A program made the position numbers and the translations under genes. Positions 1,079 to 45,993 of a stretch of DNA of 62,719 bases are shown in pieces; positions within the stretch are counted from its first letter, which is position 1; the number at the start of each line of letters is the position of its first letter. This stretch comes from an uncultured virus (IMG/VR IMGVR_UViG_3300043567_001092) (Duplodnaviria > Heunggongvirae > Uroviricota > Caudoviricetes), in the IMG/VR virus record IMGVR_UViG_3300043567_001092; one strand, given 5' to 3'. Below the pieces are notes generated by a model. It was not told the origin of the DNA and searched no databases. It saw only the letters and a program-made list of their open reading frames with translations.

Positions 1079-1756
1079 TTATATTTTAACTATCCACTTT
1101 TGGACTAAGTATGGTTGCATGTTATTGTGTTTGTTTACTGCTGATGCAGGTGTAGAATTGGCCAAATCCCCAGTCAGTGTGTGAGAATGGGCACCGCTTA
1201 TACTGCTTGCTCCGGCATCAGCCTGGCCGCTAGGTGTTGAATAGAAATAATATCCATAATCTGTAGCGCCACTAAAATACCATGACATATCTGTTTTATA
1301 AGATGGATTTAATGAAGTTATATCATTTGATTGTTCTACCGAAAACGTAATAGGGTCAGTGTCTTTCATAAACATATAATGCTTATGTTCACCTGCGTAA
1401 TCTAAAGTAATAGTGCTTGTATTGTGAGAATGAGTTGGATTTCCAATTTCATCAGCAGTTAATTGATGCTTCTCGGCACCATTAAAACTTCCGAGAATTC
1501 TGGTTACAGAACCAGACACTGGGTCAGTGTAAGTACCAGCACCAATTACTGTTCTTCCAATCATGTTAGGAAGATTTGCACCAAATATACTATATAATAG
1601 TGGGTATTGAGCCTGTGTAATCGCAGACCCATCTAATTCTAACCAACCAGATGGAATGGTAGCCATGGACCATACTTTAATAGTTCCAGATGGCTCTAAA
1701 CCTTCGCCTTTTTTTATTGAATGATTATTTGTGGTTAATCCTGATCTTTTTGCCAT
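1079..1756 (-). CDS. Tail collar domain fibre protein (paralog 3)
   Basis: Collar motif GTIKVW..PSGWLELDG..YPLLYSI..LPNMIGR, HxH metal-binding motifs, C-terminal HNNMQPY. Confidence 0.85.
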   Translation of the reverse strand: MAKRSGLTTNNHSIKKGEGLEPSGTIKVWSMATIPSGWLELDGSAITQAQYPLLYSIFGANLPNMIGRTVIGAGTYTDPVSGSVTRILGSFNGAEKHQLTADEIGNPTHSHNTSTITLDYAGEHKHYMFMKDTDPITFSVEQSNDITSLNPSYKTDMSWYFSGATDYGYYFYSTPSGQADAGASSISGAHSHTLTGDLANSTPASAVNKHNNMQPYLVQKWIVKI

Positions 1757-1757
1757 A

Positions 1758-2495
1758 TTACACCTTTATAATCCATTTTTGTACTATATATGGCTGCATA
1801 TTATTATGCGCAGTTGCTAATTCAGATATGCTTGTAAAAGATAAATCAGTATTAGGACCTGTGTGCGTATGTTGACCAGAACTATTATATCCAGAGCCAA
1901 CAGCATACGATGTTTGTATTCTTGATGGCTCAAGTCCAGTATAAATACCAAGAACTGATGAAAAAGAAACTTTTGAAGCAGCGCCACCAAAAACCATACC
2001 GCCCATTAATGAATATGCAACATTGCCATAATTTGGAACTGTGTGAAATTCAATTATTCCAGTTCCAAAATATTTTGACATTGTATAGTGTGTATGATTT
2101 CCTGCCGATACTGAAAGCACAGACCCTCTTGCATGCGAATGGGCAACTTCTCCTGATTCTGCATTTAATACTTTGTGCTTTTCAGCGCCATTTGAAGTTC
2201 CTAAAAATCTAATGACTGAACCAGACACTGGGTCAGTGTAAGTACCAGAACCAATTGGAACTCTCCCTGCCAAATTGGGAAGATTAAAATGTGAACTGTC
2301 TGCAGATCCGTAAATTGTACCTAAAATAGAAAACAGTCTAGCGTAATCAGTTCGAGATAAAGATGATCCATCTAATTCTAACCAACCAGATGGAATAGTA
2401 GCTCCGCCCCAACAAATTACTGTTCCTGTAGTAACTGCACCGTCTGTTATTTGTATTGATTGAGTTGTTGTATTTAATCCAAGTCTTGCTGCCAT
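1758..2495 (-). CDS. Tail collar domain fibre protein (paralog 2)
   Basis: PSGWLELDGSSLSRTDYARLFSILGTIYG..FNLPNLAGRVP, HxH motifs, HNNMQPY. Confidence 0.88.
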   Translation of the reverse strand: MAARLGLNTTTQSIQITDGAVTTGTVICWGGATIPSGWLELDGSSLSRTDYARLFSILGTIYGSADSSHFNLPNLAGRVPIGSGTYTDPVSGSVIRFLGTSNGAEKHKVLNAESGEVAHSHARGSVLSVSAGNHTHYTMSKYFGTGIIEFHTVPNYGNVAYSLMGGMVFGGAASKVSFSSVLGIYTGLEPSRIQTSYAVGSGYNSSGQHTHTGPNTDLSFTSISELATAHNNMQPYIVQKWIIKV

Positions 2496-2496
2496 A

Positions 2497-3183
2497 TTAA
2501 ACCTTCACTATCCATCTTTGAACTAAATATGGTTGCATATTGTTATGTGAATTTGCTGCATTGGCAGCAGCTGAAGACATAACGCCCCCCGAAGTCACAT
2601 GATAATGATTACCAGAAGTTGAGCTAGCCCCTCTATCTGCGGCAGATTCGTGTCCTCTTATTGAATAAGCAAACCATGCACCAAAATCACTGTAATGTAA
2701 AGCTAATGGCAGATTTTCATTTGGATACACGGCTGGGTCTACATTCGTCTGAGATGTGCTATGGTACACTCCATAATGTTGATGGCTATTTGATGAAACA
2801 GAATTTACATTTATGTTGTGTTTGTGTTGAACCAATGCACTTTCTGCTGAAAGCAATAAATGTTTTTCAGCACCATTCGATGCACCTAATACTCTAGTTA
2901 CAGAACCAGATACTGGATCAGTATAAGTACCAGCACCAACTGGAACTCTGCCAACCAAATTTGGAATACCAAAAGTTGTTGAACCGTCACCAGCTCCATA
3001 AGTTGTACCGTATATACCAAAAAGATTTGGATACAAAGTCCTTGAAACTGGTATACCATTACACTCTATCCACCCAGGAGGATAGACATTTGAAGACCAC
3101 GGCTTTACAGTCCCTGGCTTTTCGTAACCAAGGTGGCCTTGCATTGTAGAGTTATTTATATTTAAACCTGATCTTGCTGCCAT
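2497..3183 (-). CDS. Tail collar domain fibre protein (paralog 1)
   Basis: PPGWIECNG..SRTLYPNLF..YGAGDGSTTFGIPNLVGRVPVG, HxH motifs, HNNMQPY. Confidence 0.9.
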   Translation of the reverse strand: MAARSGLNINNSTMQGHLGYEKPGTVKPWSSNVYPPGWIECNGIPVSRTLYPNLFGIYGTTYGAGDGSTTFGIPNLVGRVPVGAGTYTDPVSGSVTRVLGASNGAEKHLLLSAESALVQHKHNINVNSVSSNSHQHYGVYHSTSQTNVDPAVYPNENLPLALHYSDFGAWFAYSIRGHESAADRGASSTSGNHYHVTSGGVMSSAAANAANSHNNMQPYLVQRWIVKV

Positions 3184-4337: not shown

Positions 4338-4567
4338 TATTCCCCCCTAAGAAATTTGGAGATATCAATATTTGCAGCAGTGACTGTTTCGATAGCGTTA
4401 GCATTGGCTGGTTCAAATGTAGTAGTCAATATGTCCACTGGAAAAATTATATTCCCAGGGATACTTCGTAAAGCCTCAAGCTCTCTAATTCTAGCATCTT
4501 TAAGTTCTAAAAGCTTGGTAAGCTCAACAACTTGCTCTCGTAGTAATTGTTCAATTGGACTGCTCAT
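4337..4567 (-). CDS. Small coiled-coil hypothetical protein
   Basis: Stop/start overlaps with both neighbours. Confidence 0.6.
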   Translation of the reverse strand: MSSPIEQLLREQVVELTKLLELKDARIRELEALRSIPGNIIFPVDILTTTFEPANANAIETVTAANIDISKFLRGE

Positions 4568-5214
4568 TAGAATCCTTTTAAAACATATTTAAGAGTGAGT
4601 GGAACCCCTTCTAGATCAGAAGTATATTTTAATTTAACGCTTCCAGATTCCATAACAATAGAGAGCCAAGCGCTTACATCGTTACCGATTTCTGTAAAGG
4701 AATGATCATAAGCAACGGAGCTAAAGCCGTCATTTAATATGTTGAAATCGCCTTTTCTTTTACGGCCATTACCAGTAGTTCTTTGTAATGTGTATTCGAT
4801 ATTTGCAAATGGTTTAGATGAACCAACGAAAACCAAAGCATCTGCTAACGTAGCTTGGCCATCTACTAAGGTGATTGTTAACGGAACTTCGCCGACGCCA
4901 GTCCAAATGTTAGCAGCTCTTTGATAAATAGTTGAAGAAGACCCTTGAATAACAATAGCTACATCGCCATCTTTTGTTCCGGTATATAATACTTCCCAAC
5001 TGTTTGGGTTAGTATCGGGCTGTAGACCTACGTTTGAATTTACTTTGGAACGGTACATCTTTCCAGAGTATTCTAAGCAATTATATTGTGAGTAAGTAGT
5101 TGAAACATCCCAGTAATCTACTAGGTTGTTTGAAGAAAATACAATAGCAGCGTTCGCGTTATCGGTTAAAGAACCTCGACCTAAAGCTAATGAGTCTATT
5201 TTTTGTAATGCCAC
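4567..5214 (-). CDS. Structural protein with CBM5/12-like carbohydrate-binding module
   Basis: WDVSTTYSQYNCLEYSGKMYRSK..QPDTNPNSWE resembles CBM5/12. GTG start with GAGGAG RBS. Confidence 0.6.
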   Translation of the reverse strand: MALQKIDSLALGRGSLTDNANAAIVFSSNNLVDYWDVSTTYSQYNCLEYSGKMYRSKVNSNVGLQPDTNPNSWEVLYTGTKDGDVAIVIQGSSSTIYQRAANIWTGVGEVPLTITLVDGQATLADALVFVGSSKPFANIEYTLQRTTGNGRKRKGDFNILNDGFSSVAYDHSFTEIGNDVSAWLSIVMESGSVKLKYTSDLEGVPLTLKYVLKGF

Positions 5215-5285
5215 TTTACTCCTCTCTTTGGGACCATCTGGGCCAAAAGACCAACAAGCATTTCTGATTGCAGGAATTATCTATA

Positions 5286-5293
5286 AGATTAGG
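5286..5293 (-). promoter_or_regulatory. Putative late promoter motif CCTAATCT
   Basis: The same 8-mer recurs upstream of minus-strand virion genes throughout the window. Confidence 0.65.
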
Positions 5294-5340
5294 TTAAACT
5301 GCTATATATTACAATATATTAGGGTATATGGCATTTCAGG

Positions 5341-5369
5341 TTGATTTTATTCAAGTTTTGTGGTAATAT
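5341..5369 (+). promoter_or_regulatory. Sigma70-type promoter upstream of the microprotein array
   Basis: TTGATT-17bp-TAATAT with extended -10 TG. Confidence 0.6.
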
Positions 5370-5437
5370 TATTAGGTGGTGCCGCATACAAAGTTGCTCA
5401 AACAATTTGTGCGGAATTGCATTAACATCATTAAGTT

Positions 5438-5629
5438 ATGGAAATAATTATGGAATTATATAAGCTTTTAGTTGTTAGAAATAGAGAAAAGAAGGTTATT
5501 GCCGAAAACTTGAGCAAAGAAGAGGTGTCTGTAGCAAAGACAGATTGGGCAACTATTTATAATAACGACGTTTATTTCGATCCAGTTCCAGTGTTATTGG
5601 TTGAAGTGCAGCGTGAGGGTGAAGAATGA
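5438..5629 (+). CDS. Hypothetical protein, first gene of the array operon (not a family member)
   Basis: ORF downstream of the promoter, ATGA overlap with the next gene. Start may be 5450. Confidence 0.6.
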   Translation: MEIIMELYKLLVVRNREKKVIAENLSKEEVSVAKTDWATIYNNDVYFDPVPVLLVEVQREGEE

Positions 5630-5826
5630 GGAAACGCGAGCAGGCAGAAGTACATAACGCCTTGTTCTATCAAGTAAGGTACATTCTAGATGTAATTCAA
5701 GAACCTGAAGAAGTTACAGAATATACTATTATGGATATCTTGTTAGATAATCGACTCAGACCTGTTGATGTTGCTGAGTTGCAAAAGCAAGTAAGATATT
5801 TTATTGCGAATCGGAATATAAGGTAA
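5626..5826 (+). CDS. MKKRxQ-family microprotein 1
   Basis: Starts MRKREQA. Confidence 0.8.
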   Translation: MRKREQAEVHNALFYQVRYILDVIQEPEEVTEYTIMDILLDNRLRPVDVAELQKQVRYFIANRNIR

Positions 5827-5830
5827 ATAT

Positions 5831-6028
5831 ATGGTCAAAAGAAGGCAGCTAAGTGATTTTCTTAAAAAGTATCTCTACAATAAGCTTTATAGCCAGTCTA
5901 TGATCACAACTGAATACGTTTGGGACAAAGTATGGTACAGCACTAGACCTGATCTCTACCTATTGCTTCATGTTAATATCGAAATAGAAATTACTAAACA
6001 CATAAGACAAATTAAGGCCACTAAATGA
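5831..6028 (+). CDS. MKKRxQ-family microprotein 2
   Basis: Starts MVKRRQL. Confidence 0.8.
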   Translation: MVKRRQLSDFLKKYLYNKLYSQSMITTEYVWDKVWYSTRPDLYLLLHVNIEIEITKHIRQIKATK

Positions 6029-6216
6029 GGAAAAGAGACCAGATTGATGATTCTAAATTTTTTTGGCGATTAGTTGACCGCACCTTATCTTGGCGCATAG
6101 ACGATGAACTTGGGGCATATCTTAGATGGCAATTTCGCGACAATTTAGATGATAACCTTTACTATCACTTGTATAGACACATAAGCGATTTCTTAAGGCA
6201 AGAGGAATTAAAATGA
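6025..6216 (+). CDS. MKKRxQ-family microprotein 3
   Basis: Starts MRKRDQI. Confidence 0.8.
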   Translation: MRKRDQIDDSKFFWRLVDRTLSWRIDDELGAYLRWQFRDNLDDNLYYHLYRHISDFLRQEELK

Positions 6217-6392
6217 GAAGAAGAAATTCAATTGATGCATACCATAGACTATTGCTCTCTCTTGCTAAGAATTCAGGTAAAGTCGTAAAAGATGACTATT
6301 TTAACAGACTTATGGATATAGTTCGCGAAGGGGCTAACCAAGAAATGAAAATTAAGCTCTATGCCTATTTAAAAGATGTGAGGTCAAAATGA
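6213..6392 (+). CDS. MKKRxQ-family microprotein 4 (59 aa, below track cutoff)
   Basis: Starts MRRRNSI, ATGA overlaps at both ends. Confidence 0.75.
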   Translation: MRRRNSIDAYHRLLLSLAKNSGKVVKDDYFNRLMDIVREGANQEMKIKLYAYLKDVRSK

Positions 6393-6571
6393 AGAAACAT
6401 ATTCACATGGACGACATGTTTTATATAAAAATGCATACAGCCATAAAGTCTAGATTAGATGATAGTTTGTACGATAGATTGTATTTTATATTTTTAGACG
6501 ACAAGATGAATTGCATTAGGCGTGAATTGAGAAGACATATAGCAAATTCTCTCGTAAGATGGCACAGATGA
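6389..6571 (+). CDS. MKKRxQ-family microprotein 5
   Basis: Starts MKKHIHM (divergent tag), ATGA overlaps. Confidence 0.75.
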   Translation: MKKHIHMDDMFYIKMHTAIKSRLDDSLYDRLYFIFLDDKMNCIRRELRRHIANSLVRWHR

Positions 6572-6747
6572 GAAAACGAGAATTTATTGAAAAAAATTTT
6601 CATGAAAAAATCTATGAAAAATACCACGATCAACTTGATGCAAATTTGCATTTTAAATTACACCAAAAAATATACCACGAACTACGTGAAGACATTTATT
6701 GGGAATTATATAAACAAGTTAGGAACATAGTAGCTAATTGGAGCTAA
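6568..6747 (+). CDS. MKKRxQ-family microprotein 6
   Basis: Starts MRKREFI at the ATGA overlap. Confidence 0.8.
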   Translation: MRKREFIEKNFHEKIYEKYHDQLDANLHFKLHQKIYHELREDIYWELYKQVRNIVANWS

Positions 6748-6748
6748 T

Positions 6749-6934
6749 GTGAAGAAACGTAAGCAATTAGATAAATTCTTTTTCAGAACACGAATGAGGT
6801 TGAATAAAGACATACCATTTCGTTTATATTCTAGTGGCCGCGTAAATCATTATATTGATTCATCTTTGACAAACAATTCTGTATGTAGCGGTATTATATT
6901 GTTAATTAAATCAGAAATCGAGGGCGAAGAATGA
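6749..6934 (+). CDS. MKKRxQ-family microprotein 7
   Basis: GTG start, MKKRKQL. Confidence 0.8.
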   Translation: MKKRKQLDKFFFRTRMRLNKDIPFRLYSSGRVNHYIDSSLTNNSVCSGIILLIKSEIEGEE

Positions 6935-7143
6935 GGAAGAGGGAGAGGGCCAACCTTCAGGTTAGAAGGTTAGTAGATTACATACCATGCGATATACTTA
7001 CGGCTGGGTTAACAAGCAGAATCAGCTTTAAAGCCGCTGATATGTATGATATACTTAAAGTGGGTATTATTAATAGGCTTATACATTGCATACAAGACTA
7101 TGATTCAAAAAAGGCATCAAATGAGGCGAAGAGAAATACTTAA
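6931..7143 (+). CDS. MKKRxQ-family microprotein 8
   Basis: Starts MRKRERA. Confidence 0.75.
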   Translation: MRKRERANLQVRRLVDYIPCDILTAGLTSRISFKAADMYDILKVGIINRLIHCIQDYDSKKASNEAKRNT

Positions 7144-7330
7144 CCAGCAGTTTTATATTTGGAACGAAAGCCAATGGATTGATAAGCTTTGGTATCAACT
7201 TGGAAGCGAGAGAACTAAGGTATTGATACCATTTATTAAAAACCATATTGGTGTTGAACTTAAAGAACAGATATATGGACAGCTTAAGTGTAATTTGAGA
7301 TTACATGTAAGAAATACTGAAGGGATTTAA
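7121..7330 (+). CDS. MKKRxQ-family microprotein 9
   Basis: Internal ATG gives MRRREIL. Confidence 0.75.
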   Translation: MRRREILNQQFYIWNESQWIDKLWYQLGSERTKVLIPFIKNHIGVELKEQIYGQLKCNLRLHVRNTEGI

Positions 7331-7331
7331 G

Positions 7332-7511
7332 ATGATAAAAAGAATTCCTATTTCTAGTGAAAAGATTAGCGATAAGCTTTTTGATATGGTGTATAGTCAA
7401 CCTTATTATGGAATGCGAAAGCGTATTCGTAATCAACTTAGTGTTAAGCTCAGTAACCAATTATATCAGGAATTGATTTTGCCTATTGCCTATCAAAAGA
7501 GGGTTAATTAA
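7332..7511 (+). CDS. MKKRxQ-family microprotein 10 (59 aa, below track cutoff)
   Basis: Starts MIKRIPI, contains IRNQLSVKLSNQLYQEL. Confidence 0.78.
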   Translation: MIKRIPISSEKISDKLFDMVYSQPYYGMRKRIRNQLSVKLSNQLYQELILPIAYQKRVN

Positions 7512-7512
7512 T

Positions 7513-7761
7513 ATGAAAAAGCGAAAACAGTTGGAGAATCAGTTCGGGTATCAGTTGGGGTATGAGTCGGTGAATCAGTTGGTGAATCAGTTGAGGTATC
7601 AGTTGGTGTATCAGTTGGTGTATCAGTTGGTGTATCAGTTGGAGAATCAGTTGGTGAATCAGTTGGAGAATCAGTTGAGGTATCAGTTGAGGTATCAGTT
7701 GAGGGATCAGTTGGTGAATCAGTTGAGAAAAACTGAAACTGTTTACAAGAGGGTTAATTAA
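7513..7761 (+). CDS. MKKRxQ-family microprotein 11 (near-pure QLxx repeat)
   Basis: MKKRKQLENQFGYQL..(QL[VRE][NYD])n. Confidence 0.8.
   Translation: MKKRKQLENQFGYQLGYESVNQLVNQLRYQLVYQLVYQLVYQLENQLVNQLENQLRYQLRYQLRDQLVNQLRKTETVYKRVN
7528..7725 (+). repeat. 12-nt tandem repeat CAGTTGNNGNAT, 16 units plus a partial
   Basis: Read directly from the sequence. Confidence 0.92.
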
Positions 7762-7762
7762 T

Positions 7763-7945
7763 ATGAAAAAGCGAAAACAAATTGCAGACATATCATTTAA
7801 TGTTTTCAGAGAAGCATTTATTACACAGATTTATAAAAAAAGTGACTTAAAGTATAATTGCATAATTGATGAGCAACTGACCTCTAAATTAGTAAATCAG
7901 ACTCTTGGATATCAAATACGATACTTGATTATAGGTTTGTTCTAA
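7763..7945 (+). CDS. MKKRxQ-family microprotein 12
   Basis: Starts MKKRKQI. Confidence 0.8.
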   Translation: MKKRKQIADISFNVFREAFITQIYKKSDLKYNCIIDEQLTSKLVNQTLGYQIRYLIIGLF

Positions 7946-8125
7946 ATGGTTAAAAGAATCCCACTCAAAGACGGATTATATGTTAAAATAGACAGTGCTT
8001 TTAACTGCCAGTTAGAGTACAAAGTCTATACGCTGCTTCGTGAAAAGCTTTTCGTTGTTCTTTGGGACGAAATTAGGGATCAACTTGAAAGAAATGTCAG
8101 AATATCTTTAAAAAACAGGGCATAA
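7946..8125 (+). CDS. MKKRxQ-family microprotein 13 (59 aa, below track cutoff)
   Basis: Starts MVKRIPL, contains WDEIRDQL. Confidence 0.78.
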   Translation: MVKRIPLKDGLYVKIDSAFNCQLEYKVYTLLREKLFVVLWDEIRDQLERNVRISLKNRA

Positions 8126-8126
8126 G

Positions 8127-8300
8127 ATGAGGAAAAGAGAGCAGATTGATAACATTTTATTTGTTCAATTTACAGATGTGCTTAAAGACTCATTTGGGGA
8201 CAATGTAAGCATGCCATTTTTTTATAAGATAATGCTGGCATTACAAGGGGAATTAGTTGGCGAACTTTATAGACAATTAGAATCACAGGTGTTGAGATGA
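8127..8300 (+). CDS. MKKRxQ-family microprotein 14 (57 aa, below track cutoff)
   Basis: Starts MRKREQI. Confidence 0.8.
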   Translation: MRKREQIDNILFVQFTDVLKDSFGDNVSMPFFYKIMLALQGELVGELYRQLESQVLR

Positions 8301-8494
8301 AGAAACGAGAACAACTGATAACTAACTTATATTTTAAATTTTATAAGAAATATAACGATTTGCCAAATGAGGAAACTTTTGATATAATCAACGGAGAACT
8401 TGGCGATAAGTTAAATAGACAGATTTGGTATCCTGTTCGTGGGGAGTTATTCGATCAACTTTATTGTCATACTATTAAGAAAGAAGCGAAATGA
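8297..8494 (+). CDS. MKKRxQ-family microprotein 15
   Basis: Starts MKKREQL. Confidence 0.8.
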   Translation: MKKREQLITNLYFKFYKKYNDLPNEETFDIINGELGDKLNRQIWYPVRGELFDQLYCHTIKKEAK

Positions 8495-8700
8495 AAAAAC
8501 GAGTTCAAATACCTGGGCATCTTGGTGACAAATTGTGGGAACAACTGGCTTACACCATGAGCGGTCAATTAAGATTCAAGCTTAAAATGGTTTTAGCAAA
8601 CTCTAGTTTAGTTGATGAATATGACACTGCTGCGGCGCATTGCCACCTTAGAAAAAATGTTTATTGCCACCTTAGATTTAACAGTGGGATTAGAAAATGA
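8491..8700 (+). CDS. MKKRxQ-family microprotein 16
   Basis: Starts MKKRVQI. Confidence 0.8.
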   Translation: MKKRVQIPGHLGDKLWEQLAYTMSGQLRFKLKMVLANSSLVDEYDTAAAHCHLRKNVYCHLRFNSGIRK

Positions 8701-8867
8701 GACAACGCGATCAAATATATAGACATTTTTCTTCGCATTTAGATTATGAACTAAAGTGTTTGTATAGAAATCAATTTGATGAGTGGTTGTTTTATCATAT
8801 TGGGCGAAACATAGGAAATACTGTCAAGTATGATCTTATTAATTTGCAGGAATTGTTGGGAAAATGA
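8697..8867 (+). CDS. MKKRxQ-family microprotein 17 (56 aa, below track cutoff)
   Basis: Starts MRQRDQI, ATGA overlaps. Confidence 0.8.
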   Translation: MRQRDQIYRHFSSHLDYELKCLYRNQFDEWLFYHIGRNIGNTVKYDLINLQELLGK

Positions 8868-9055
8868 GAAAGCGCGAAGAAATAAGTGTTATAAACAGCA
8901 TAGACCAGATTTCTAGAAACAAAATGCTTATTCAAGTAGGTACGCCTGTACGTAATCAGATTGTTAGCAGATTGCGCGACAATCTTTTAAATGAACTATT
9001 AGACCAACTGTATATGCATACGGCTTATTACCTCAATGAGAGGGTGACAAAATGA
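8864..9055 (+). CDS. MKKRxQ-family microprotein 18
   Basis: Starts MRKREEI. Confidence 0.8.
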   Translation: MRKREEISVINSIDQISRNKMLIQVGTPVRNQIVSRLRDNLLNELLDQLYMHTAYYLNERVTK

Positions 9056-9249
9056 AAAAAAGGATTGAGATTGATTCCATGGTTTTTGATAAGATTCAGG
9101 AGCATCTTTTTAATTTTTATTTCGATAAGAGAATTGATCGGTCGCTATACAAGAAATTCTTAGATGATCTTGAGGAATCTGACGCAAACAATTCCGTCAA
9201 TCTTATAATGTCGGCAGTAATTTGGCGCATTGAAAGGGAAACACTATGA
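9052..9249 (+). CDS. MKKRxQ-family microprotein 19
   Basis: Starts MKKRIEI. Confidence 0.8.
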   Translation: MKKRIEIDSMVFDKIQEHLFNFYFDKRIDRSLYKKFLDDLEESDANNSVNLIMSAVIWRIERETL

Positions 9250-9443
9250 AAAAACGTGATCAAATTAACTATCAACTTTATGAGCTATACTTTGAATTTA
9301 ATAAACTGTATCCAAAGTTATCATCAACAAATGATTATTACGTAATTAATACTGCAACAAGAACAGCACTTTATGATATGTTTTACGGTGAAATTAGATG
9401 GCATCTTAAAGGTTTTGTGAGAGATTTTAAGGGTTTGTCATGA
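9246..9443 (+). CDS. MKKRxQ-family microprotein 20
   Basis: Starts MKKRDQI. Confidence 0.8.
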   Translation: MKKRDQINYQLYELYFEFNKLYPKLSSTNDYYVINTATRTALYDMFYGEIRWHLKGFVRDFKGLS

Positions 9444-9634
9444 TAAAGCGTAAGCAGATTAACGACAAAGTACATAGTAGACTACTCAAAGTGTGCTTTT
9501 CTAAATTAAAATTACCCAACAATGTTTACTTCGCAATTCATGACAGGCTTACTGAAAAACTATATGAAATTAGTTGGGGGCAGATTAGAAGCAAGGTTTA
9601 CGACGAAATACATATGATAAGTAAAGTGAATTAA
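9440..9634 (+). CDS. MKKRxQ-family microprotein 21
   Basis: Starts MIKRKQI. Confidence 0.8.
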   Translation: MIKRKQINDKVHSRLLKVCFSKLKLPNNVYFAIHDRLTEKLYEISWGQIRSKVYDEIHMISKVN

Positions 9635-9635
9635 A

Positions 9636-9827
9636 ATGACTAAAAGATATCAATTAACAGACAGATTATATACCAGCGTACTAAGAGTATACATGCCGTC
9701 CTCTTCTTGGGTATATGACATGCTGCTTGATGAAATTTATAATCCCATTTATTTACAACTTAGGGATCAACTTAGAGAACACGTTCGCAACAGTATCGAA
9801 TCGTTAAAGCAAAGTGAACTAAAATGA
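9636..9827 (+). CDS. MKKRxQ-family microprotein 22
   Basis: Starts MTKRYQL. Confidence 0.8.
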   Translation: MTKRYQLTDRLYTSVLRVYMPSSSWVYDMLLDEIYNPIYLQLRDQLREHVRNSIESLKQSELK

Positions 9828-10021
9828 TTAAAAGAGAGCAGATCGACAGCCAGATAGATATTATATTATATGCATACGTTGATGAACAAATTTATTATCA
9901 ATTGGATAAGCTTTTTGAAAATTTCTTGAGAGAAGAGCTTGATGACCAATTATATACGGAGCTTGATATAAATCTTCGTCTTGAGCTGTACAGATATCTA
10001 AATAATGGGGTATTAAGATGA
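9824..10021 (+). CDS. MKKRxQ-family microprotein 23
   Basis: Starts MIKREQI. Confidence 0.8.
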   Translation: MIKREQIDSQIDIILYAYVDEQIYYQLDKLFENFLREELDDQLYTELDINLRLELYRYLNNGVLR

Positions 10022-10203
10022 AGAAGAGAGAATGTTTAGAGATGAAATTAGGTGATAAACTAGCTTTCAAATATTATAATGAGTTACAAGATGGCCAACA
10101 CCATTTAATATACGCTCATGTAAAAAAAACTCTCGTGAAAGAGGTTCACCAAAATGTTAGAACTCAGCTAAGTGCCTATCTGAGAGCAGAGGTACCAAAG
10201 TGA
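10018..10203 (+). CDS. MKKRxQ-family microprotein 24
   Basis: Starts MKKRECL. Confidence 0.8.
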   Translation: MKKRECLEMKLGDKLAFKYYNELQDGQHHLIYAHVKKTLVKEVHQNVRTQLSAYLRAEVPK

Positions 10204-10421
10204 TAAAACGCGAGCAGATTGATAGTCATATATATACTTTTATCTATGATGATTTATACAATCAGCTATATGGTCAAATTAGCGTCACGTGCGGTAAATG
10301 GACATTTGACTATGTTTACAGTAGTTTAACTTTGCAGTATTATAACTTATCATCAGATGGCCAGTACAGCTCTTTGGTAAACATCGTTTTAACTGATCTA
10401 GAGAAAAAGGTGTTGAAATGA
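10200..10421 (+). CDS. MKKRxQ-family microprotein 25
   Basis: GTG start, MIKREQI. Confidence 0.8.
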   Translation: MIKREQIDSHIYTFIYDDLYNQLYGQISVTCGKWTFDYVYSSLTLQYYNLSSDGQYSSLVNIVLTDLEKKVLK

Positions 10422-10597
10422 GAAAAAGAGAGCAGATTGACAACACATTGGATGACAATATAAGAGACATTTTGAATGTCAGCTTGGGCTCTAACTTTAG
10501 AAATCAAATGTTTTCACGTATTTATAGAAATGTTAGCGCAAGGGCTGATCTGCTACATTTTATATATTACTATATAAGTACACAAAAGGTTAAATAA
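10418..10597 (+). CDS. MKKRxQ-family microprotein 26 (59 aa, below track cutoff)
   Basis: Starts MRKREQI. Confidence 0.8.
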   Translation: MRKREQIDNTLDDNIRDILNVSLGSNFRNQMFSRIYRNVSARADLLHFIYYYISTQKVK

Positions 10598-10797
10598 TGA
10601 GGAAAAGAGTACAGATAGACAGACAAATTAATGAGAATCTCAGAGACCCTTTTTACGTAAAGCTTAGTAATCAATTTAATTATTATGCTTACAATGACAT
10701 TAGGTCTAACCTATACCCAGAACTTTTCTTGATTGTATACGATCAATTATATAATAATATATATTATGTCATGAGAGAATTGGTAGTGTCAAAATGA
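10597..10797 (+). CDS. MKKRxQ-family microprotein 27
   Basis: Starts MRKRVQI. Confidence 0.8.
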   Translation: MRKRVQIDRQINENLRDPFYVKLSNQFNYYAYNDIRSNLYPELFLIVYDQLYNNIYYVMRELVVSK

Positions 10798-11039
10798 AAA
10801 AGCGAGATCGGTTACTAGATAACACAATGAGTCGGTTAATAGATCTTTTAGAAGACAGGCTTGAGAATAAGATAGTGGATTATTTGGGTTGTCAGTTAGA
10901 TGATAAGTTATATTATGAGTTTAGAAGTGAGTTAAGAATTAAGTTTTATGATCGGTTAGTAGATCAAATGAATAATCAACTAAGACATCATTTAAGGACG
11001 CAAGTATATGGAGTCGAGAGAAAACATAGAAATATTTGA
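10794..11039 (+). CDS. MKKRxQ-family microprotein 28
   Basis: Starts MKKRDRL, clear 4-residue Leu periodicity. Confidence 0.8.
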   Translation: MKKRDRLLDNTMSRLIDLLEDRLENKIVDYLGCQLDDKLYYEFRSELRIKFYDRLVDQMNNQLRHHLRTQVYGVERKHRNI

Positions 11040-11187
11040 TTATACTCGTATAATAATGAGATCGTCATATTTTTCTTCTAACAAAATTATATTTGAAACA
11101 GATCAAAAGCTCATGTGTATGCTAATTCCATTTTTTCTAGAAATGAGGCAGCAAATCAGGGAGCATATTACGGGCAATTGCAAATGA
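11008..11187 (+). CDS. MKKRxQ-family microprotein 29 (divergent, 59 aa)
   Basis: Starts MESRENI, contains MRQQIREHI, ATGA overlap with the next gene. Confidence 0.6.
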   Translation: MESRENIEIFDYTRIIMRSSYFSSNKIIFETDQKLMCMLIPFFLEMRQQIREHITGNCK

Positions 11188-11363
11188 AGAAACGTAAACA
11201 GATTTTCTTGAAGGAATATAACCGCGTATTTACTAAAATGGGTATGCCACTTCCGTCTTCAGTTGAAGAGGCGGTAGAAACTCAGTTAAAAGATAAGCTT
11301 AGGGATGAATTGTTACACCAACTTAGGCTTCACGTTAAAACCCATTTAATGGAAATGAAATGA
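11184..11363 (+). CDS. MKKRxQ-family microprotein 30
   Basis: Internal ATG gives MKKRKQI. Confidence 0.8.
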   Translation: MKKRKQIFLKEYNRVFTKMGMPLPSSVEEAVETQLKDKLRDELLHQLRLHVKTHLMEMK

Positions 11364-11554
11364 TTAAAAGAAAAATGATACAATACAATTTTAAGACTTT
11401 GTTCCACGATTGCCTGTATTCTCAACTTGAGCCAATATTGTATCATAGGCTAAGAGACAGCTTAAACCATAAGCTTCAGCACTATACGCATAACCCACTT
11501 AAGATAGAGCTTTACTATCACATGAATGAAAAGAAAAGCTCCAATTCTAATTAA
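11360..11554 (+). CDS. MKKRxQ-family microprotein 31
   Basis: Starts MIKRKMI. Confidence 0.78.
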   Translation: MIKRKMIQYNFKTLFHDCLYSQLEPILYHRLRDSLNHKLQHYTHNPLKIELYYHMNEKKSSNSN

Positions 11555-14500
11555 GCAACACCAACTGGTTGATATTCAACAGAAATTGCCCATTGAATAG
11601 TCGCACCACTAGTACCATAAACAACCGCAACAACATCATTACCTGAAAGAGCAAATGTAATTGCATAGTCGCTACCATCGCCATCATATCCATTGATGTT
11701 TGAGATAGGGCTTCCAGCAGCTTGAGCCGTTCCACCTGATCTGTAGAAAGTTCCCTCTAAAGCAAATGAACTAACACCGAGTGGGCCATCGCTTCTTCTA
11801 GCAACTGCATTAACTTTAATTCTATAAGAATAGTTATCAGATAAAGTAACTTCAGATCCGCTAATGATTGTACCAGTAGCTCCAACAACAACTTGCGCAG
11901 CAGTTTTTCTAGTTACCGCTGAGTCTGGATGAGATGAATGAGTTTTAAGTTTCTCTACACCAGTCCAAACTTCTTTTGGTTTATTGTTTTCTCTACCGAT
12001 TACAAAGCTTTGGTCTGTAGATTCATTGAATATTCCACCAAGCGCACTTGTTCCGCCAGCGATTGCAATTGAACCTCTGTTAATGAAACTTGTTTCGCCA
12101 CCGTTTACGTTTGAAGCAGTTATATTAACCGGTCTTCCTGGGGAAGTTTGAATATCAGCGCCAGTATTATAAGCCGCTTGTAAACTGATGTCAGCAGATT
12201 TAGCTGCTAATACAGATCCATAAGAAGCCATGGCTCTGAAACGGAGTCTAGTATTAGGTGGTAAAGTACGCTTAAGTCTGATCTTAGCTTTTGGGCCACC
12301 AAACGTTTCAACGTAATCGTAACCAGCTTCTCTGATTCCATCATTAACAATAACTAAAAGCTCTTCGCCAGTTAAGCTCAACTCAGTTGTTTGTTTATAA
12401 ACTGAATGTGCTCCGTAAGTACCGATACCGCCAGCAGAAAGAACTTCTGTACGTTTATTCGGTGGAAGAACTAATTCTGTTCCAGTATCACCAAGTGGTG
12501 CTGGATCTCCATAAAGTGATACGCCAGCAAAAGGACCATCACCTGGGTTATTCACGGTTCCTACCATATTGCCGTTTTGGTAAATGCTTGTACCATCAGC
12601 AAAGGTACCATTAACTATGTTAATGACAATTGAATTACTACCTTGTAGACCGCCCGGCATAACGATAGAAGCAGATTCTATTGTTTCAGTTACATCGGCA
12701 CTTCCGTGAAGAACCCAGGCTAGGGAGGTGGGACTTTCGATTGAACCTTGGTAGATGTAACTGCCTGAGCGTATAATATCTCCGCCAAAATTTGGCGTAA
12801 AATCCATTTTTTGTATATAGACAGACTCATCGTATACTGGTCTCTTAAGAGCAGTATTGATGCTCCCAACATTCCTGTCCTGTTTTCTATGTGCCAAAGT
12901 CAAATTGTCTTGGTCTTCAATGTGCTGATTAACTTGGTAATAAGCCAAAGTATCACTAACACTTAAAGCTGAAATATTTTGATCAACTATAACTGTAATA
13001 GACGACAATGGGAATTTAACTGTGTAATAATGGTGATTTCCACTTAAGTCAATAAACTCAAGCTTATCACCAGTTTGATAACCTAAAAGGTTTGAAGCAC
13101 TCAAAGTAATCATTTGAGTTTTAGCGTCTAATGCTATAACCTCAACTTGAGATTTATAGATGTAAGATCCGCTAGCATCTGCAATACTGTAGTTTGGATT
13201 AACTGCAGATTCAGTCATCGCACCAGTGTAAACTAAGTGGTTTGAACCTTGGTTATCGTTAACCTGTCTTACTTCACCTGGCTCCATCTCTAAAGATCTG
13301 AAGTAAACTTTAGCAGAATTATTGTTATCTCTACGTAATGCAAACCAGTAGATATCTGAAGAGTTTTCAACTAGATAATGCTTAGTAACAAAAACGTCAG
13401 AGTAAACACCTTTAGTATAAACCATAGCGCCAGTGTTAGCTGGTCTGTGTACTGTGCTAGGTGCTTGGCCATCGTTTCCGACTAAGATCATAGATGATGT
13501 TGAGATGCTGCCAATTTTTAACCAATGAGAATCTTCTTCATTAGCAAACTTAACAAAGTCTCCTACTTCTAATAGATTACCGCTGATATCTAAGAAGTTA
13601 CCAGCAATTGTAGCACTTCCGCCCAATGTACTGTAAACAACACCATTAGAGATTGGTTGATTTCTTTCTAACTTAACAAAAGCAACTTCGCCATCTTCCA
13701 AGAAAGCTGTGCCAGTTACGCCACTTGTGTTAAACTTGTTAGCTTCAGGTGAAGATCCAGTAGTATCTACTGTAGCAGTTTGTGGAATAGTGATAGCTAA
13801 ATCACCGACAACAGACTTAACAACCATGTCACCAGTCCATTGAACCGGACCTGCGTATGGATTATTGTCGAAATTTAAGAATACATTTTGGATACCAGTG
13901 TTAGTGAAATCAGTTCCGCTTGGGATCTCAGTAGTGCTAGTTAATTTAAATGATGTAGCATCAATGTAAGTTAACGTAACTAGCTTATATGCTTTAATAA
14001 AAGGAGATAAATTTGAATCGCCATGAATAACAACTGTAGTTGATGGGTTAGAAACTAAACCATGATCAACAGTAGTAGTTACTTTAACTTCAGTAGCAGA
14101 AAGCTTTTGGATAGAAACAATTCTATTTGGATTAGCTACAGTAGTTTCAGCAACAACTGTATCAAAACAGATATCACCACTAGCACTGAATAATTCAGGT
14201 AATGCGCTATCTTGTCCAACTGTGTATTGAGCTTTATCGCCAGCGATACAGAAAATTGCTTGATTAGTTGTATTGTAAGTATTTGAAATAGCGCCAGTAA
14301 CAGTTGTAATAACTTTGTGGAAAGCTATCTCAGCGTAACCGCCAGTATTAATTTGTGTAATTGCTGGATATCCTAGATCAACTGTGATATCTTCACTTAC
14401 CCCAATGCTTTCAATAGTTTTAATACCGCTAGCTTCTCTATTAGGAGCGCCGATAACTACTAAGTCAGATAATAAAACAACTTGTTTAGCAATAAAGCTA

Positions 14501-16302
14501 GTGCCAGATGGTAAGGCAACTATAGTAGATGAGATAAATAAAGTATTTGTAGCAACATTAATATCTAAGATGTAAGCATAACCGCCAGTGATGTTTGCAT
14601 CAGTAATTTTCATACCGTTTTCAAATGAAGAGATATTACCAGAAGTTACTGCTATATAGTTAGCGCCACCAACAAAAACAGTTGTACCTGTAACTGGAGC
14701 TTTAAACGTATTTCTTGGAATAGTTAAAACAGCAAAGCCAGGGGTTGCATCCATAGTAGCATTTGTGATTTCTAACGGTGAAGTAAATGGATGTCTAACT
14801 GTTTGATCAGTTAAATCAACGCCATTGGTACCGCTTACAGTTGCTACACCGCTTTGTTGTTTATTAACAGCATAAGTTAAAACATTGCCTTGGATCTTTA
14901 AAATTCTGTGTGTTCCAGTAGCTGAATCATCTGCTGCAGAAATGCCAGAAACTTTAATGAATTGACCAGGCGCGAAGTTGGCGATGTTAGAAACATTGAT
15001 ACTAATTAAAGAAAACGAAAAATCTGATACAGAGTTAGTTACGTTCTCATAACTCCAGCTATTGATATTACCAGCAGTAGTGCTAGATGATTTTCTTTGT
15101 AAAGTACCAAGTCTAGCTGTGTTATGTGGCTCATCAATTAAAAGCCAGCTAGCAGAAGATGGTCTAAACTTGCGTCTGAATCTTAAGCTCTCTGAATAAA
15201 CAAAACCAGCAGAAGTCAATGAGTTAATTAAGGTGCTGTTATTATTAAATGAAGTAACTGTAGCTTTAACACCAGAAGTAGCACCCTCAACATACGCATC
15301 ACCAGATAAAACAGTTGAATCAGTGAATGATGACTGATAGTTACCATCAGTTGGAGTAGTAGTCTCTAAAACTAAGTTGTAAGAAATAGCGCCAGAACCA
15401 GTTAAAACTGATCCAACAGAATCCCACCAAACGCTATTAATAGTTGGTGAACCAGAACCTGCAACAGAGTTTGTATACCAGTAGTTTGACCCAGTTATCT
15501 CTTTTAATCGGGTCATGATGCTATCCATCCAATCCTTAAGATTTTTGATAGCAAAATCACCGTAGTCAAAAGCTTGAACGTCTTTACCAGGAGTTACAGA
15601 AACTGGATTAGCTCCAACAACGTCTGAAGTCCATTCTTTTCTTCCATCTAATGTTTGGGTATTTGTTAAGTTGCCCCAGTTGAAAGAATTAGCTGGATCT
15701 GGGTTAGCTCCACCAGAACCTAAACGAAATAAGTTTTGAGTTGCTTTTGTAATAGAAGAAACTTTACCGTTAACATCAGTATAAACTATGTATAGAGGTA
15801 AATAAGTACTGAAACCAATTGGAGAAATAATATAACGGTATTCTAATACTTTACCGATAGCTGTGCTTCTTTGGTATTCTAATTTTTGAGATGCAGACCA
15901 TCCGCTCATTGCGTCGATAGTCGAAGTATCTGTAACGCGTCTGTAATCCAAAGAGACATAGTTCGCAACACCTGATTGGAATGAACCGATAACTTTATTA
16001 TTGCTTGAATCTAAGATATCGTTTGCAGTTCCAGCAGGTACGGTCAAGATTGTTCCAGATTCAGATGCAGTTGAATGTAAGATTGCTGAATCAGAAACTT
16101 CTATTTCAAGGTTAGTTGCAGCAATTGCATTTTGAGGAATTTTTATTCTGAATCCTCTGATAAGATAAGGTTTATTTAAACCAGTTACCATACCTCGGAT
16201 AAAAGAATCAAAATCATATGCAACCGAAGACTCGATGCTCTTTACATGAGAAACATCTAATCTTGCACCACTAAAAAAATTTAGTCTACGTTTTACGCTC
16301 AC
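11551..16302 (-). CDS. Large virion protein (baseplate-attached fibre-like, 1583 aa)
   Basis: Follows the baseplate genes, beta-rich modules, late motif upstream. Confidence 0.65.
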   Translation of the reverse strand: MSVKRRLNFFSGARLDVSHVKSIESSVAYDFDSFIRGMVTGLNKPYLIRGFRIKIPQNAIAATNLEIEVSDSAILHSTASESGTILTVPAGTANDILDSSNNKVIGSFQSGVANYVSLDYRRVTDTSTIDAMSGWSASQKLEYQRSTAIGKVLEYRYIISPIGFSTYLPLYIVYTDVNGKVSSITKATQNLFRLGSGGANPDPANSFNWGNLTNTQTLDGRKEWTSDVVGANPVSVTPGKDVQAFDYGDFAIKNLKDWMDSIMTRLKEITGSNYWYTNSVAGSGSPTINSVWWDSVGSVLTGSGAISYNLVLETTTPTDGNYQSSFTDSTVLSGDAYVEGATSGVKATVTSFNNNSTLINSLTSAGFVYSESLRFRRKFRPSSASWLLIDEPHNTARLGTLQRKSSSTTAGNINSWSYENVTNSVSDFSFSLISINVSNIANFAPGQFIKVSGISAADDSATGTHRILKIQGNVLTYAVNKQQSGVATVSGTNGVDLTDQTVRHPFTSPLEITNATMDATPGFAVLTIPRNTFKAPVTGTTVFVGGANYIAVTSGNISSFENGMKITDANITGGYAYILDINVATNTLFISSTIVALPSGTSFIAKQVVLLSDLVVIGAPNREASGIKTIESIGVSEDITVDLGYPAITQINTGGYAEIAFHKVITTVTGAISNTYNTTNQAIFCIAGDKAQYTVGQDSALPELFSASGDICFDTVVAETTVANPNRIVSIQKLSATEVKVTTTVDHGLVSNPSTTVVIHGDSNLSPFIKAYKLVTLTYIDATSFKLTSTTEIPSGTDFTNTGIQNVFLNFDNNPYAGPVQWTGDMVVKSVVGDLAITIPQTATVDTTGSSPEANKFNTSGVTGTAFLEDGEVAFVKLERNQPISNGVVYSTLGGSATIAGNFLDISGNLLEVGDFVKFANEEDSHWLKIGSISTSSMILVGNDGQAPSTVHRPANTGAMVYTKGVYSDVFVTKHYLVENSSDIYWFALRRDNNNSAKVYFRSLEMEPGEVRQVNDNQGSNHLVYTGAMTESAVNPNYSIADASGSYIYKSQVEVIALDAKTQMITLSASNLLGYQTGDKLEFIDLSGNHHYYTVKFPLSSITVIVDQNISALSVSDTLAYYQVNQHIEDQDNLTLAHRKQDRNVGSINTALKRPVYDESVYIQKMDFTPNFGGDIIRSGSYIYQGSIESPTSLAWVLHGSADVTETIESASIVMPGGLQGSNSIVINIVNGTFADGTSIYQNGNMVGTVNNPGDGPFAGVSLYGDPAPLGDTGTELVLPPNKRTEVLSAGGIGTYGAHSVYKQTTELSLTGEELLVIVNDGIREAGYDYVETFGGPKAKIRLKRTLPPNTRLRFRAMASYGSVLAAKSADISLQAAYNTGADIQTSPGRPVNITASNVNGGETSFINRGSIAIAGGTSALGGIFNESTDQSFVIGRENNKPKEVWTGVEKLKTHSSHPDSAVTRKTAAQVVVGATGTIISGSEVTLSDNYSYRIKVNAVARRSDGPLGVSSFALEGTFYRSGGTAQAAGSPISNINGYDGDGSDYAITFALSGNDVVAVVYGTSGATIQWAISVEYQPVGVA

Positions 16303-35699: not shown

Positions 35700-35888
35700 A
35701 TGACTAAGCGCGAATTGTCCGCATCTGTTTACATATTGGTTACTTTTATTATATGCTATTTTGCTTATGGTGTTTATCAGACAAAACAACAAATTTCTCA
35801 AGCTTGTGAAGATCAGTGCTACCCGGCGGATGTTAAAGACGCAGATATGCAATATTGTAAATGTTTTTACAAAAAAGCTGGGATGTAA
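35700..35888 (+). CDS. Small membrane protein with Cys-rich C-terminus
   Basis: Hydrophobic helix, CxxxC..CxC. Confidence 0.6.
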   Translation: MTKRELSASVYILVTFIICYFAYGVYQTKQQISQACEDQCYPADVKDADMQYCKCFYKKAGM

Positions 35889-36061
35889 TGGTTAAAAGAG
35901 AGCGCATTAGTCTTGGTCTTAATGGTAAAATAAGTTTAGTAATCGGCGATCAAGTCGGATACGATCTATTAAATCATTTGTACACGAAGCTCTATAAAGA
36001 TTTAAACTATAGTATTGCAATTAAACTACGTTCATACTTATACGAGAAACCCCAAAAATGA
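35888..36061 (+). CDS. MKKRxQ-family microprotein (dispersed)
   Basis: ATG at 35888 gives MVKRERI. Confidence 0.7.
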   Translation: MVKRERISLGLNGKISLVIGDQVGYDLLNHLYTKLYKDLNYSIAIKLRSYLYEKPQK

Positions 36062-36255
36062 ATAAGAGAGATCAACACACCATTTCATTTGATTATGAGC
36101 TGAGGACAGTATTTCATAATTATTTTTCAACACAAATGCATGGCGATCTTACAAGAGATGTGTGGATGGAAATTTGGGAAAAACTCGCCTACCAACTAAA
36201 AGATAATATGAAAGATAAAGTTAAAGACGTAATTAAGGACAGAATTTCAAAATGA
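36058..36255 (+). CDS. MKKRxQ-family microprotein (dispersed)
   Basis: Starts MNKRDQH, contains WEKLAYQL. Confidence 0.72.
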   Translation: MNKRDQHTISFDYELRTVFHNYFSTQMHGDLTRDVWMEIWEKLAYQLKDNMKDKVKDVIKDRISK

Positions 36256-40643: not shown

Positions 40644-40841
40644 TTAAATGCGTTTTGAAGTCTGAATATATCTTTGCGCCTGTTCTTTGGTTTCTTTATA
40701 TAAAACATCAAATAACATACTGCCGAGATTTGAATATGATTTTGAATAAATACTATAGGATGGCATGTTGCAATATTTTGAATACAGCCTGCTTCTGAAA
40801 CTAGTAAGGTGTGCGCTCCCCAATGCTTCTCGTTTTTCCAT
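40644..40841 (-). CDS. MKKRxQ-family microprotein (dispersed)
   Basis: Starts MEKREAL. Confidence 0.7.
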   Translation of the reverse strand: MEKREALGSAHLTSFRSRLYSKYCNMPSYSIYSKSYSNLGSMLFDVLYKETKEQAQRYIQTSKRI

Positions 40842-40842
40842 C

Positions 40843-41034
40843 TTATTTGCCTATTTTTTCTTCATATAATTGTTGGTGAGTTTGATCTCTTAATTCGTAC
40901 CAGAGCGTGATGTCTTTTAATTGCTCCCAAATTTGGGCATACATTTGATCTGATATTGTGGAATGGAGCCACATATACAGTTCGTCCCTAAATCTCTCTC
41001 TTAGTTTATCCCGAAACTGCTCTCTTTTTCTCAT
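40843..41034 (-). CDS. MKKRxQ-family microprotein (dispersed)
   Basis: Starts MRKREQF, contains ELRDQ and WEQL. Confidence 0.8.
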   Translation of the reverse strand: MRKREQFRDKLRERFRDELYMWLHSTISDQMYAQIWEQLKDITLWYELRDQTHQQLYEEKIGK

Positions 41035-43422: not shown

Positions 43423-43441
43423 CTGGACCTCCGTTTCAATT

Positions 43442-44387: not shown

Positions 44388-44392
44388 TTTAA

Positions 44393-45533: not shown

Positions 45534-45552
45534 ATATTTTTTAATATTTTTC

Positions 45553-45989: not shown

Positions 45990-45993
45990 TAAT

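Follow-up and report, generated by a model that had tools for sequence, protein, structure and literature searches.

Chained mini-genes of a lake-water myovirus and their probable kinship with the tetrad tract of DUF6745 proteins

An array of tetrad-repeat mini-genes

The DNA analysed here, a stretch of 62,719 nucleotides (nt) hereafter called the window, belongs to an IMG/VR virus record (IMGVR_UViG_3300043567_001092; 121,824 bases, 76% complete by the CheckV estimate) and carries on its plus strand, at 5626–11554, an array of 31 chained mini-genes, each of which encodes a protein composed of MxK followed by about 14 four-residue units (tetrads) of the form xxx[LIVF]. The array is a genuine and extensive feature under selection, and the mini-genes very probably represent a family of detached helices of the type that forms the tetrad tract of proteins with the domain DUF6745 (Pfam PF20530). 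The same phage is represented by a second record, G001 (157,572 bases, estimated to be 98% complete), and the source is a lake-water myovirus of about 158 kb with a tract-protein family of about 45 members, of which the array is the largest block. By start motif and family hidden Markov model (HMM), 44 members were found in the window, 30 of them among the 31 array genes and 13–14 at three other sites, while the twin record adds one member outside the window (45 in total); within the 121,824-base record, no member falls outside the window. About one tenth of the window (some 8.6 kb and about 45 genes) is given to one family of helical mini-proteins that curated libraries do not recognise.

The array genes are back-to-back open reading frames (ORFs) of 56–82 amino acids (aa), all 31 intact, as an earlier note on this DNA had reported; together they span 5919 of the 5929 nt (99.8%), and 200 shuffles of the same stretch gave a mean of 1.0 ORF of at least 56 aa (maximum 4). 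Translational coupling, which had also been proposed, is borne out by the junctions: 19 of the 30 are 4-nt overlaps (ATGA, one GTGA), six have a +1 gap, spacings of 0, −1 and +4 occur once each, and two show longer overlaps (−23 and −32). Moreover, an AGG/GGA/GAG/GGG word lies 5–15 nt 5′ of 26 of the 31 starts, against a background rate of 0.26 at random positions. Because ATGA-type overlaps occur together with these Shine-Dalgarno-like words, the array genes are most likely translated as one coupled unit, antisense to the surrounding tail genes. The two flanking genes (4567–5214 and 11551–16302, both on the minus strand) do lie within a tail-fibre/baseplate block, which agrees in part with the antisense position between virion genes described earlier, but neither matches a named structural family, the sole match of 4567–5214 being a weak one to a PHROG without assigned function.

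From residue 4 onwards, every fourth place in the members is held by L, I, V or F, as in MIK REQI DSQI DIIL YAYV DEQI YYQL DKLF ..., and the hydrophobic spacing of roughly four residues that had been noticed before proves to be exact: relative to shuffles, L/I/V/F/M show a period-4 power with z = 24.9. Periods of 3.5 and 3.6 are not enriched (z = 0.2 and −0.5), and a heptad coiled coil was rejected on the value at period 3.5. The same layout explains the N-terminus, which the earlier note had read as a constant tag in front of a variable body: the start is indeed conserved and the bodies are indeed divergent, but the body is a run of about 14 tetrads, and the R-x-Q-[IL] of the tag is the first tetrad of the tract. 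The motif M-[KRIV]-[KR]-R-x-[QE]-[IL], once ascribed to nearly all members, is complete in 17 of the 31, while M-x-[KRQ]-R is present in 29 and Arg4 in 30. Across the whole family, Arg4 is found in 44 of 45 members and is written 22 times with AGR and 22 times with CGN codons, and this equal use of both codon families points to Arg4 being kept at the protein level, not via homogenisation of the DNA. The start motif is constant within a genome and specific to a lineage, being MxKRxQI in the window, M[IT]KHKQ[IL] and M[KR]RR[TE]Q in the related phage records G014 and G004, respectively, and MKSVxxQV at the related locus L021.

The likeness of the members extends beyond their first residues. When each protein was scored with a leave-one-out HMM and compared with 20 shuffled versions of its own sequence, all 31 full-length members exceeded their best shuffle (three of them marginally), and after removal of residues 1–8 the bodies still passed in 26 cases, those starting at 6749, 6931, 8697, 9052 and 11008 being the ones that failed. 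The idea of a selected family of small proteins is upheld by the intact frames, by Arg4 in both codon families and by the orthologues in other contigs. AlphaFold2 modelled member 10597–10797 as a single helix of residues 2–65 (predicted local distance difference test, pLDDT, 95; predicted template modelling score, pTM, 0.51), and this member is accordingly predicted to be one long alpha-helix. Searches of the members against Pfam, PHROGs, PADLOC and NCBIfam gave nothing usable, the weak Pfam rows all lying below cut-off; none of the 46 ORFs scanned had a PHROG match at E ≤ 0.01, and PF20530 itself matched none of the 32 ORFs scanned for it (the 31 array ORFs and a leader ORF).

The relation to DUF6745 emerged from a profile of 44 members, which was compared with 1.84 billion protein representatives and matched 678 proteins at E ≤ 1e-3, linking the mini-genes to DUF6745 tracts. 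The top matches are proteins of 300–700 aa with 3–8 matched stretches each, and the region matched in them is a long xxQL/xxQV/xxQI tetrad tract. In 30 of 46 sampled matches, PF20530 was present at E ≤ 1e-3 on the C-terminal side of the tract (27 above the curated cut-off), while 16 of the 46 were without it, including a Peptidase_S8 protein and a DUF4347 protein; similarity among periodic sequences such as these could be partly compositional. Word-indexed searches gave nine matches for short homologues of the family and three for longer homologues of the tract-less DUF6745 core described below. The internal tract of the DUF6745 proteins P0001, P0006, P0090 and a 341-aa protein of phage G002 has the same four-residue period as the mini-proteins, with Gln at the third and Leu, Ile or Val at the fourth tetrad position, a similarity that holds at the profile level. 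Moreover, tract proteins and mini-genes keep the same genomic company (VWA, MoxR and DUF6745 core genes), and 62 of 128 fused DUF6745 forms have at least one basic residue among the four residues preceding the first tetrad. A conserved stretch of 7–10 columns was found neither in the alignment of the family nor in that of the fused proteins.

One array member stands out in this respect. The gene at 7513–7761 (plus strand) is built of a near-perfect 12-nt repeat, CAGTTGnnGnAT, giving xxQL (14 overlapping 96-nt copies), and is bracketed by a perfect 33-nt direct repeat with copies at 7497–7529 and 7747–7779; it resembles the tracts of fused DUF6745 proteins and may be one of recent origin. In the metagenome run X13, one contig joins 7746 back to 7497, a joint that may reflect a true duplication or may have arisen when the assembly ran across the 33-nt repeat. 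The least typical member is the 29th ORF (11008–11187, plus strand; MESRENI...), which overlaps its upstream neighbour by 32 nt and was missed by the family HMM; as a full protein it scored 7.7 bits against 3.2 for its best shuffle in the leave-one-out comparison, and its body alone failed.

Ongoing change of the members, which the term hypervariable in the earlier note might imply, was not supported. The array with its surroundings is identical in G001 (7001 of 7001 nt), and contigs from four other lake-water runs of different studies carry a near-identical array with five variant places and no insertions or deletions; most runs with the array are lake-water metagenomes. Four members have orthologues elsewhere at 69–89% identity with mostly conservative changes, while the median identity of paralogues within the array is 26%. 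Judged from these comparisons, the repertoire is old and stable, with each member kept, and is not diversifying in real time. An actively diversifying cassette, such as a contingency locus or one like a diversity-generating retroelement, was considered and rejected on these differences between samples, the one possible duplication joint being ambiguous. The array gave no megablast match among 50,697 phage records, and no orthologous array was found via P0283 (viral and metagenome contigs) or via a 215-aa flank gene (metagenome contigs).

The tract-less DUF6745 core as a predicted docking partner

The only window protein that matches PF20530 is a DUF6745 core of 208 aa without a tract (P0151; 43546–44172, plus strand; E = 5e-8, above cut-off). 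It is divergently oriented with respect to two adjoining genes on the minus strand, namely a MoxR/CobS-like AAA+ ATPase (42364–43446; phrog_1297, E = 2e-50; Pfam AAA_5) and a VWA-like protein with an N-terminal putative metallopeptidase (41234–42340; Pfam DUF2201, 1.2e-16, and DUF2201_N, 3e-14), a pair that is also supported by phrog_1314. This trio is kept together in related phages, the VWA-peptidase gene being syntenic with the core in 10 related loci, and 140 core homologues of about 200 aa were collected. Alignment with the fused 341-aa protein of G002, in which an xSQV tract separates the N-terminal from the C-terminal part, places the tract insertion between core residues of about 81 and 100. 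AlphaFold2 modelled the core with a pLDDT of 95.4, residues 139–141 forming a strand. Its fold had no Foldseek match in the PDB at E ≤ 1e-3 and reached a best Z of 4.4 in a wide VIA-align search; by sequence, the core had no PDB match and the mini-proteins came no closer than E = 0.018, and a BFVD search with the core returned only other DUF6745 proteins.

Member 10597–10797 was then modelled together with the core, using a 56-row alignment for the core and a 42-row paralogue alignment for the mini-protein. The interface score ipSAE (interaction prediction score from aligned errors) was 0.89 in all three runs, whereas the best of three controls reached 0.07, with at least 94% agreement of contacts between runs and a partner pLDDT of at least 81. 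Among solved complexes, 116 of 157 attain that mark, as do 2 of 215 mismatched pairs, a calibration that is rough here since the alignments were custom-made. Expected error is lowest for the contacts of mini-protein residues 5–6 with core residues 140–143 and 79–80, the latter being the site where fused relatives begin their tract. In the model, all 15 periodic hydrophobic positions (7, 11, ... 63) touch the core, and the positions two residues after them (13, 17, ... 53) are mostly out of contact. As no similar solved structure exists, this score cannot derive from solved structures that the program had learned; the model supports binding of the mini-protein to the core and does not demonstrate it. 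The conserved start, to which the earlier note had assigned a possible targeting function, is accordingly predicted to contact a partner, but the predicted partner is the DUF6745 core encoded 32 kb away, not the capsid. At the same interface, core residue 143 is K with mostly E or D at mini-protein position 5 in this phage, and E with K or R in G014 and G005; this charge-swap pattern covers five lineages, is mixed in G009 and was not counted as evidence.

A census of 10 whole records with a trio-type tract-less core bears on how core and tract are combined. Mini-genes are present in five of them, namely G001 (45), G004 (8), G009 (6), G014 (11) and G005 (4, about 46 kb from the core). Two further records, G002 and G013, both from complete phages, have no mini-genes and carry instead a fused, tract-bearing paralogue; in G013 the gene order is MoxR, VWA, fused, tract-less (L020, 7275–10964), and in G002 the tract-less and fused genes lie 10 kb apart (L006, 1763–2413 and 11965–12990, the locus holding both). 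Since mini-genes and a fused paralogue never occurred together (none of the seven records with a tract donor), the census favours their being two versions of one component. In G014 (L014, 7099–10582), mini-genes are interspersed among the VWA, MoxR and core genes, and stops overlap with the starts that come next. At L021 and L022, mini-genes come after a tract-less core, the available portion of either contig showing neither a MoxR nor a VWA gene, while more distant phages (L023–L027) have solo fused proteins with no MoxR or VWA gene found at the loci; from both observations it follows that the mini-genes go with DUF6745 first. A simple split-protein origin was rejected, given that G002 and G013 each encode a fused paralogue in addition to the tract-less core.

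Clues to function come from relatives of the core. Its look-alikes by language model and structure include cyanobacterial clusters (atlas label Cyanobacteriota) in which DUF6745 is joined to leucine-rich repeats (LRRs), and a 619-aa protein of Microseira combines LRR_4 (2.5e-46) with DUF6745 (2.2e-31). The Microseira genome has five DUF6745 matches, including a tetrad-tract form and an LRR form. Because the core is repeatedly combined with protein-binding repeat modules, the analogy suggests that the tract, too, may recognise something. Among Microseira sp. loci, N-terminal-LRR, tetrad-tract and charged-helical-insert forms were seen at L040 (193–2052), L038 (5938–6669) and L042 (775–2025), respectively, and the tetrad-tract copy is apparently interrupted by a stop. 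In two named phages, the DUF6745 genes are found in replication or early regions and not in virion modules: gp174 of Ma-LMM01 lies between the DNA polymerase and uracil-DNA glycosylase (UDG) genes, and gene 38 of a Mycobacterium abscessus prophage comes after a RepA-like initiator. Two mini-genes of the window are likewise coupled to a 5′–3′ exonuclease gene. In Table S3 of the Ma-LMM01 study, gp174 is assigned to the middle class, with log2 fragments per kilobase per million (FPKM) of 0, 2.3, 11.6 and 11.6 at 0, 1, 3 and 6 h (Morimoto et al. 2018, PMC5780444), and by these tabulated values a DUF6745 family member is transcribed during infection.

With these clues, we consider it an evenly balanced proposition that the mini-proteins function as exchangeable modules which dock on the tract-less core. 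Each of them would dock non-covalently, with the conserved start (Arg4, Gln6 and Ile/Leu7) anchored on the core strand 139–143 and the loop 79–84, the loop being where fused relatives would start their tract; the periodic hydrophobic stripe would pack on core helices and leave the opposite helix face exposed, and one constant core could potentially be loaded with about 45 alternative helical modules. The likeliest job of such modules would be the recognition of different targets in the replication phase of infection, as suggested by the cyanobacterial LRR homologue and by the replication/early-gene location in two phages. More tentative, and in our view rather doubtful, is the full scheme of non-covalent combinatorial recognition, in which a DUF6745 scaffold would act with MoxR and the VWA-peptidase and carry about 45 helical specificity modules through a lineage-specific N-terminal anchor. 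If true, this scheme would give one phage a stable, inherited repertoire of target-binding surfaces. Docking on the core would provide the first functional handle on DUF6745, a domain that is widespread in phages and cyanobacteria, and interchangeable parts would represent a novel viral strategy for encoding a repertoire, with many small genes, one scaffold and no hypermutation.

Several points weigh against docking on the core. The cores of G006, G007 and G008 are without any tract donor by HMM and by an unbiased period-4 scan, G006 being a complete phage with terminal repeats, and with three such phages the core does not strictly need a tract. In addition, because a complete fused paralogue accompanies the tract-less core in G002 and G013, the core is a separate conserved paralogue and not simply a protein that has shed its tract. 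The census records are related by kinship, and one HMM flavour (xxQL) missed xxSV tracts. The array lies 32 kb from the core, apparently with its own start region. As for the model, the folding program may place the helix from learned fused homologues; about three of four mini-protein residues touch the core, leaving few for a variable outer surface; and the docking covers one of about 45 members, which share about 26% identity. Moreover, the middle class of Ma-LMM01 comprises 162 genes in the tabulated data, and timing therefore discriminates poorly (PMC5780444). No RNA run is among the 24 runs listed for the array.

Alternative explanations and other features of the window

The strongest competitor shares the derivation from the DUF6745 tract and dispenses with the core: the mini-proteins would be stand-alone amphipathic helices, each binding a different host protein in takeover or anti-defence. 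The separate upstream gap of the array and its distance from the core fit this explanation, as do the three phages that keep a core without a tract and so show the two to be separable; the conservation of members as orthologues would be expected if each had its own target, and a member modelled alone is already a confident single helix. We nevertheless regard it as unlikely, as the mini-genes lie intermingled and overlapping with the VWA, MoxR and core genes of G014 and directly follow the core at L021 and L022, never accompany a fused paralogue in the seven tract-donor records, dock on the core strongly above controls in the model and have no PADLOC match.

A second competitor looks to the host. 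Free tracts, and perhaps the core too, might serve as decoys or dominant negatives against cyanobacterial DUF6745 proteins with tracts or LRRs, for which the five Microseira matches (one with a tetrad tract, one with LRRs), the atlas clusters of DUF6745 plus LRR labelled Cyanobacteriota and the different start tags of the phage lineages could be cited. It presumes a cyanobacterial host; no recognisable defence island surrounds the Microseira genes, the fused DUF6745 proteins match no PADLOC model, and the best-supported partner is the phage's own core, all of which makes such interference quite improbable.

Growth of the array with little function, through selfish or near-neutral expansion of a cassette by unequal recombination, would find its substrate in a conserved stop/start junction of about 25–48 nt that recurs throughout the array, in the perfect 33-nt repeat flanking the 12-nt tandem gene and in the possible 250-nt duplication joint of run X13. 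Expansion of this kind is hard to reconcile with 31 of 31 intact frames in AT-rich DNA, Arg4 maintained through both codon families, orthologue differences that are mostly conservative and an array identical across records and runs, and we give it a very small chance. Virion cargo with a targeting tag, modelled on the T4 internal proteins of the earlier note, or a role as tail-fibre parts or chaperones has a similarly slight chance: the tail-fibre/baseplate surroundings, the constant N-terminus and the proposal that MoxR–vWA-peptidase pairs aid virion assembly or processing (Iyer et al. 2021, PMC7824862) speak for it, but the array is antisense to the structural genes, no PHROG (structural or otherwise) or Pfam link was found, other members sit beside an exonuclease gene and the MoxR–VWA–core genes, the two named phages have their DUF6745 genes among those for replication or early functions, and the tag belongs to the repeat tract itself.

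Docking on the core remains the reading that we prefer, and the sites of the other members in the window can be seen beside it. Nine lie downstream of the core on the plus strand (44196–47013, at 44196–45360, 45994–46212 and 46584–47013), split by the unrelated ORFs 45357–45533, 45600–45989 and 46214–46561. These interrupting ORFs (45357–46561, plus strand) encode 58 aa, a His/Thr-rich protein of 129 aa and a 115-aa protein with two CxxC pairs, and neither they nor the neighbour 46976–47257 had a homologue in related loci. Three members are located directly downstream of the VWA-peptidase gene (40644–41226, minus strand). Two more (35888–36255, plus strand) precede a 5′–3′ exonuclease gene (36252–37142; Pfam 5_3_exonuc_N, E = 2e-37), whose start the second one overlaps. 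Directly 5′ of these two is ORF 35700–35888 (MTKRELS...), which has the look of a membrane protein; this ORF and 48974–49222 (MRARDQI...), both on the plus strand, have family-like starts and non-tetrad bodies.

Upstream of the array, the only sizeable gap is non-coding (5215–5437, plus strand) and holds a sigma70-like site that matches the consensus, TTGATT-17-TAATAT at 5341–5369. The single sigma70-type promoter claimed earlier might be placed there, but promoter-like sites are not enriched in the array region (35 against 31.2 in shuffles, standard deviation 5.9), and neither is the T4-type late-promoter word TATAAATA (6 seen against 9.0 expected). Between the gap and the array, a leader ORF of 63 aa (5438–5629, plus strand) overlaps the first member by 4 nt (ATGA); it is not a member, and it had no Pfam or PHROG family match and no tblastn homologue in related loci.

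The large genes of the window match tail-fibre, baseplate and virion-protein families, and the nearest named relatives for a virion protein are cyanomyoviruses, with an identity of about 51% or less. Three tandem paralogous tail-collar/fibre genes are located at 1079–3183 on the minus strand (225, 245 and 228 aa), at least two of which share the C-terminal motif ...HNNMQPYLVQ[KR]WIVK[IV]. The last 839 bases of the window (61881–62719) fall beyond the end of the contig G000.

Comparison with known systems

The terms DUF6745 and PF20530 occur in no indexed paper (subscription journals are largely outside the coverage of the index), and "tetrapeptide repeat" combined with "bacteriophage" and "small proteins" led to no such description in the indexed literature. 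As the earlier note had supposed when it did not recognise a described system, no printed description of a mini-gene system of this kind was found in the searches made.

Like the internal proteins IPI–IPIII of T4, the mini-proteins are small, are made by a phage and combine a common N-terminal segment with bodies that diverge. The analogy does not hold further: neither sequence nor profile comparison connects the two groups, what was called the tag proves to be the opening unit of the repeat, a core protein of the cytoplasm is predicted as partner, and the members number about 45 instead of three. A parallel in gene content is the MoxR AAA+/vWA-metallopeptidase pair of group 2.2 jumbo phages, for which a role in virion assembly or processing has been proposed (Iyer et al. 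2021, Viruses 13:63, PMC7824862). The window has the same pair (AAA_5; DUF2201_N plus DUF2201) flanked by mini-genes, whereas the available passages of that account name neither DUF6745 nor repeat mini-genes, and mini-genes also stand beside cores in contigs whose available portion showed neither of the two partner genes (L021 and L022).

The LRR–DUF6745 protein of Microseira resembles the present system in placing a variable protein-binding repeat on a DUF6745 core, with the difference that its LRR is covalently fused at the N-terminus and the mini-proteins are separate alpha-helical polypeptides. The nearest relatives are the fused DUF6745 tracts themselves. Unlike these, the mini-proteins are encoded by stand-alone genes of about 60 aa without a DUF6745 domain; every such gene has a start and a ribosome site to itself and opens with the conserved MxKRxQ[IL], and the repeats are much more degenerate. 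If the combinatorial scheme were true, the phage would possess a split counterpart of the tract- or LRR-bearing DUF6745 proteins of other phages and cyanobacteria.

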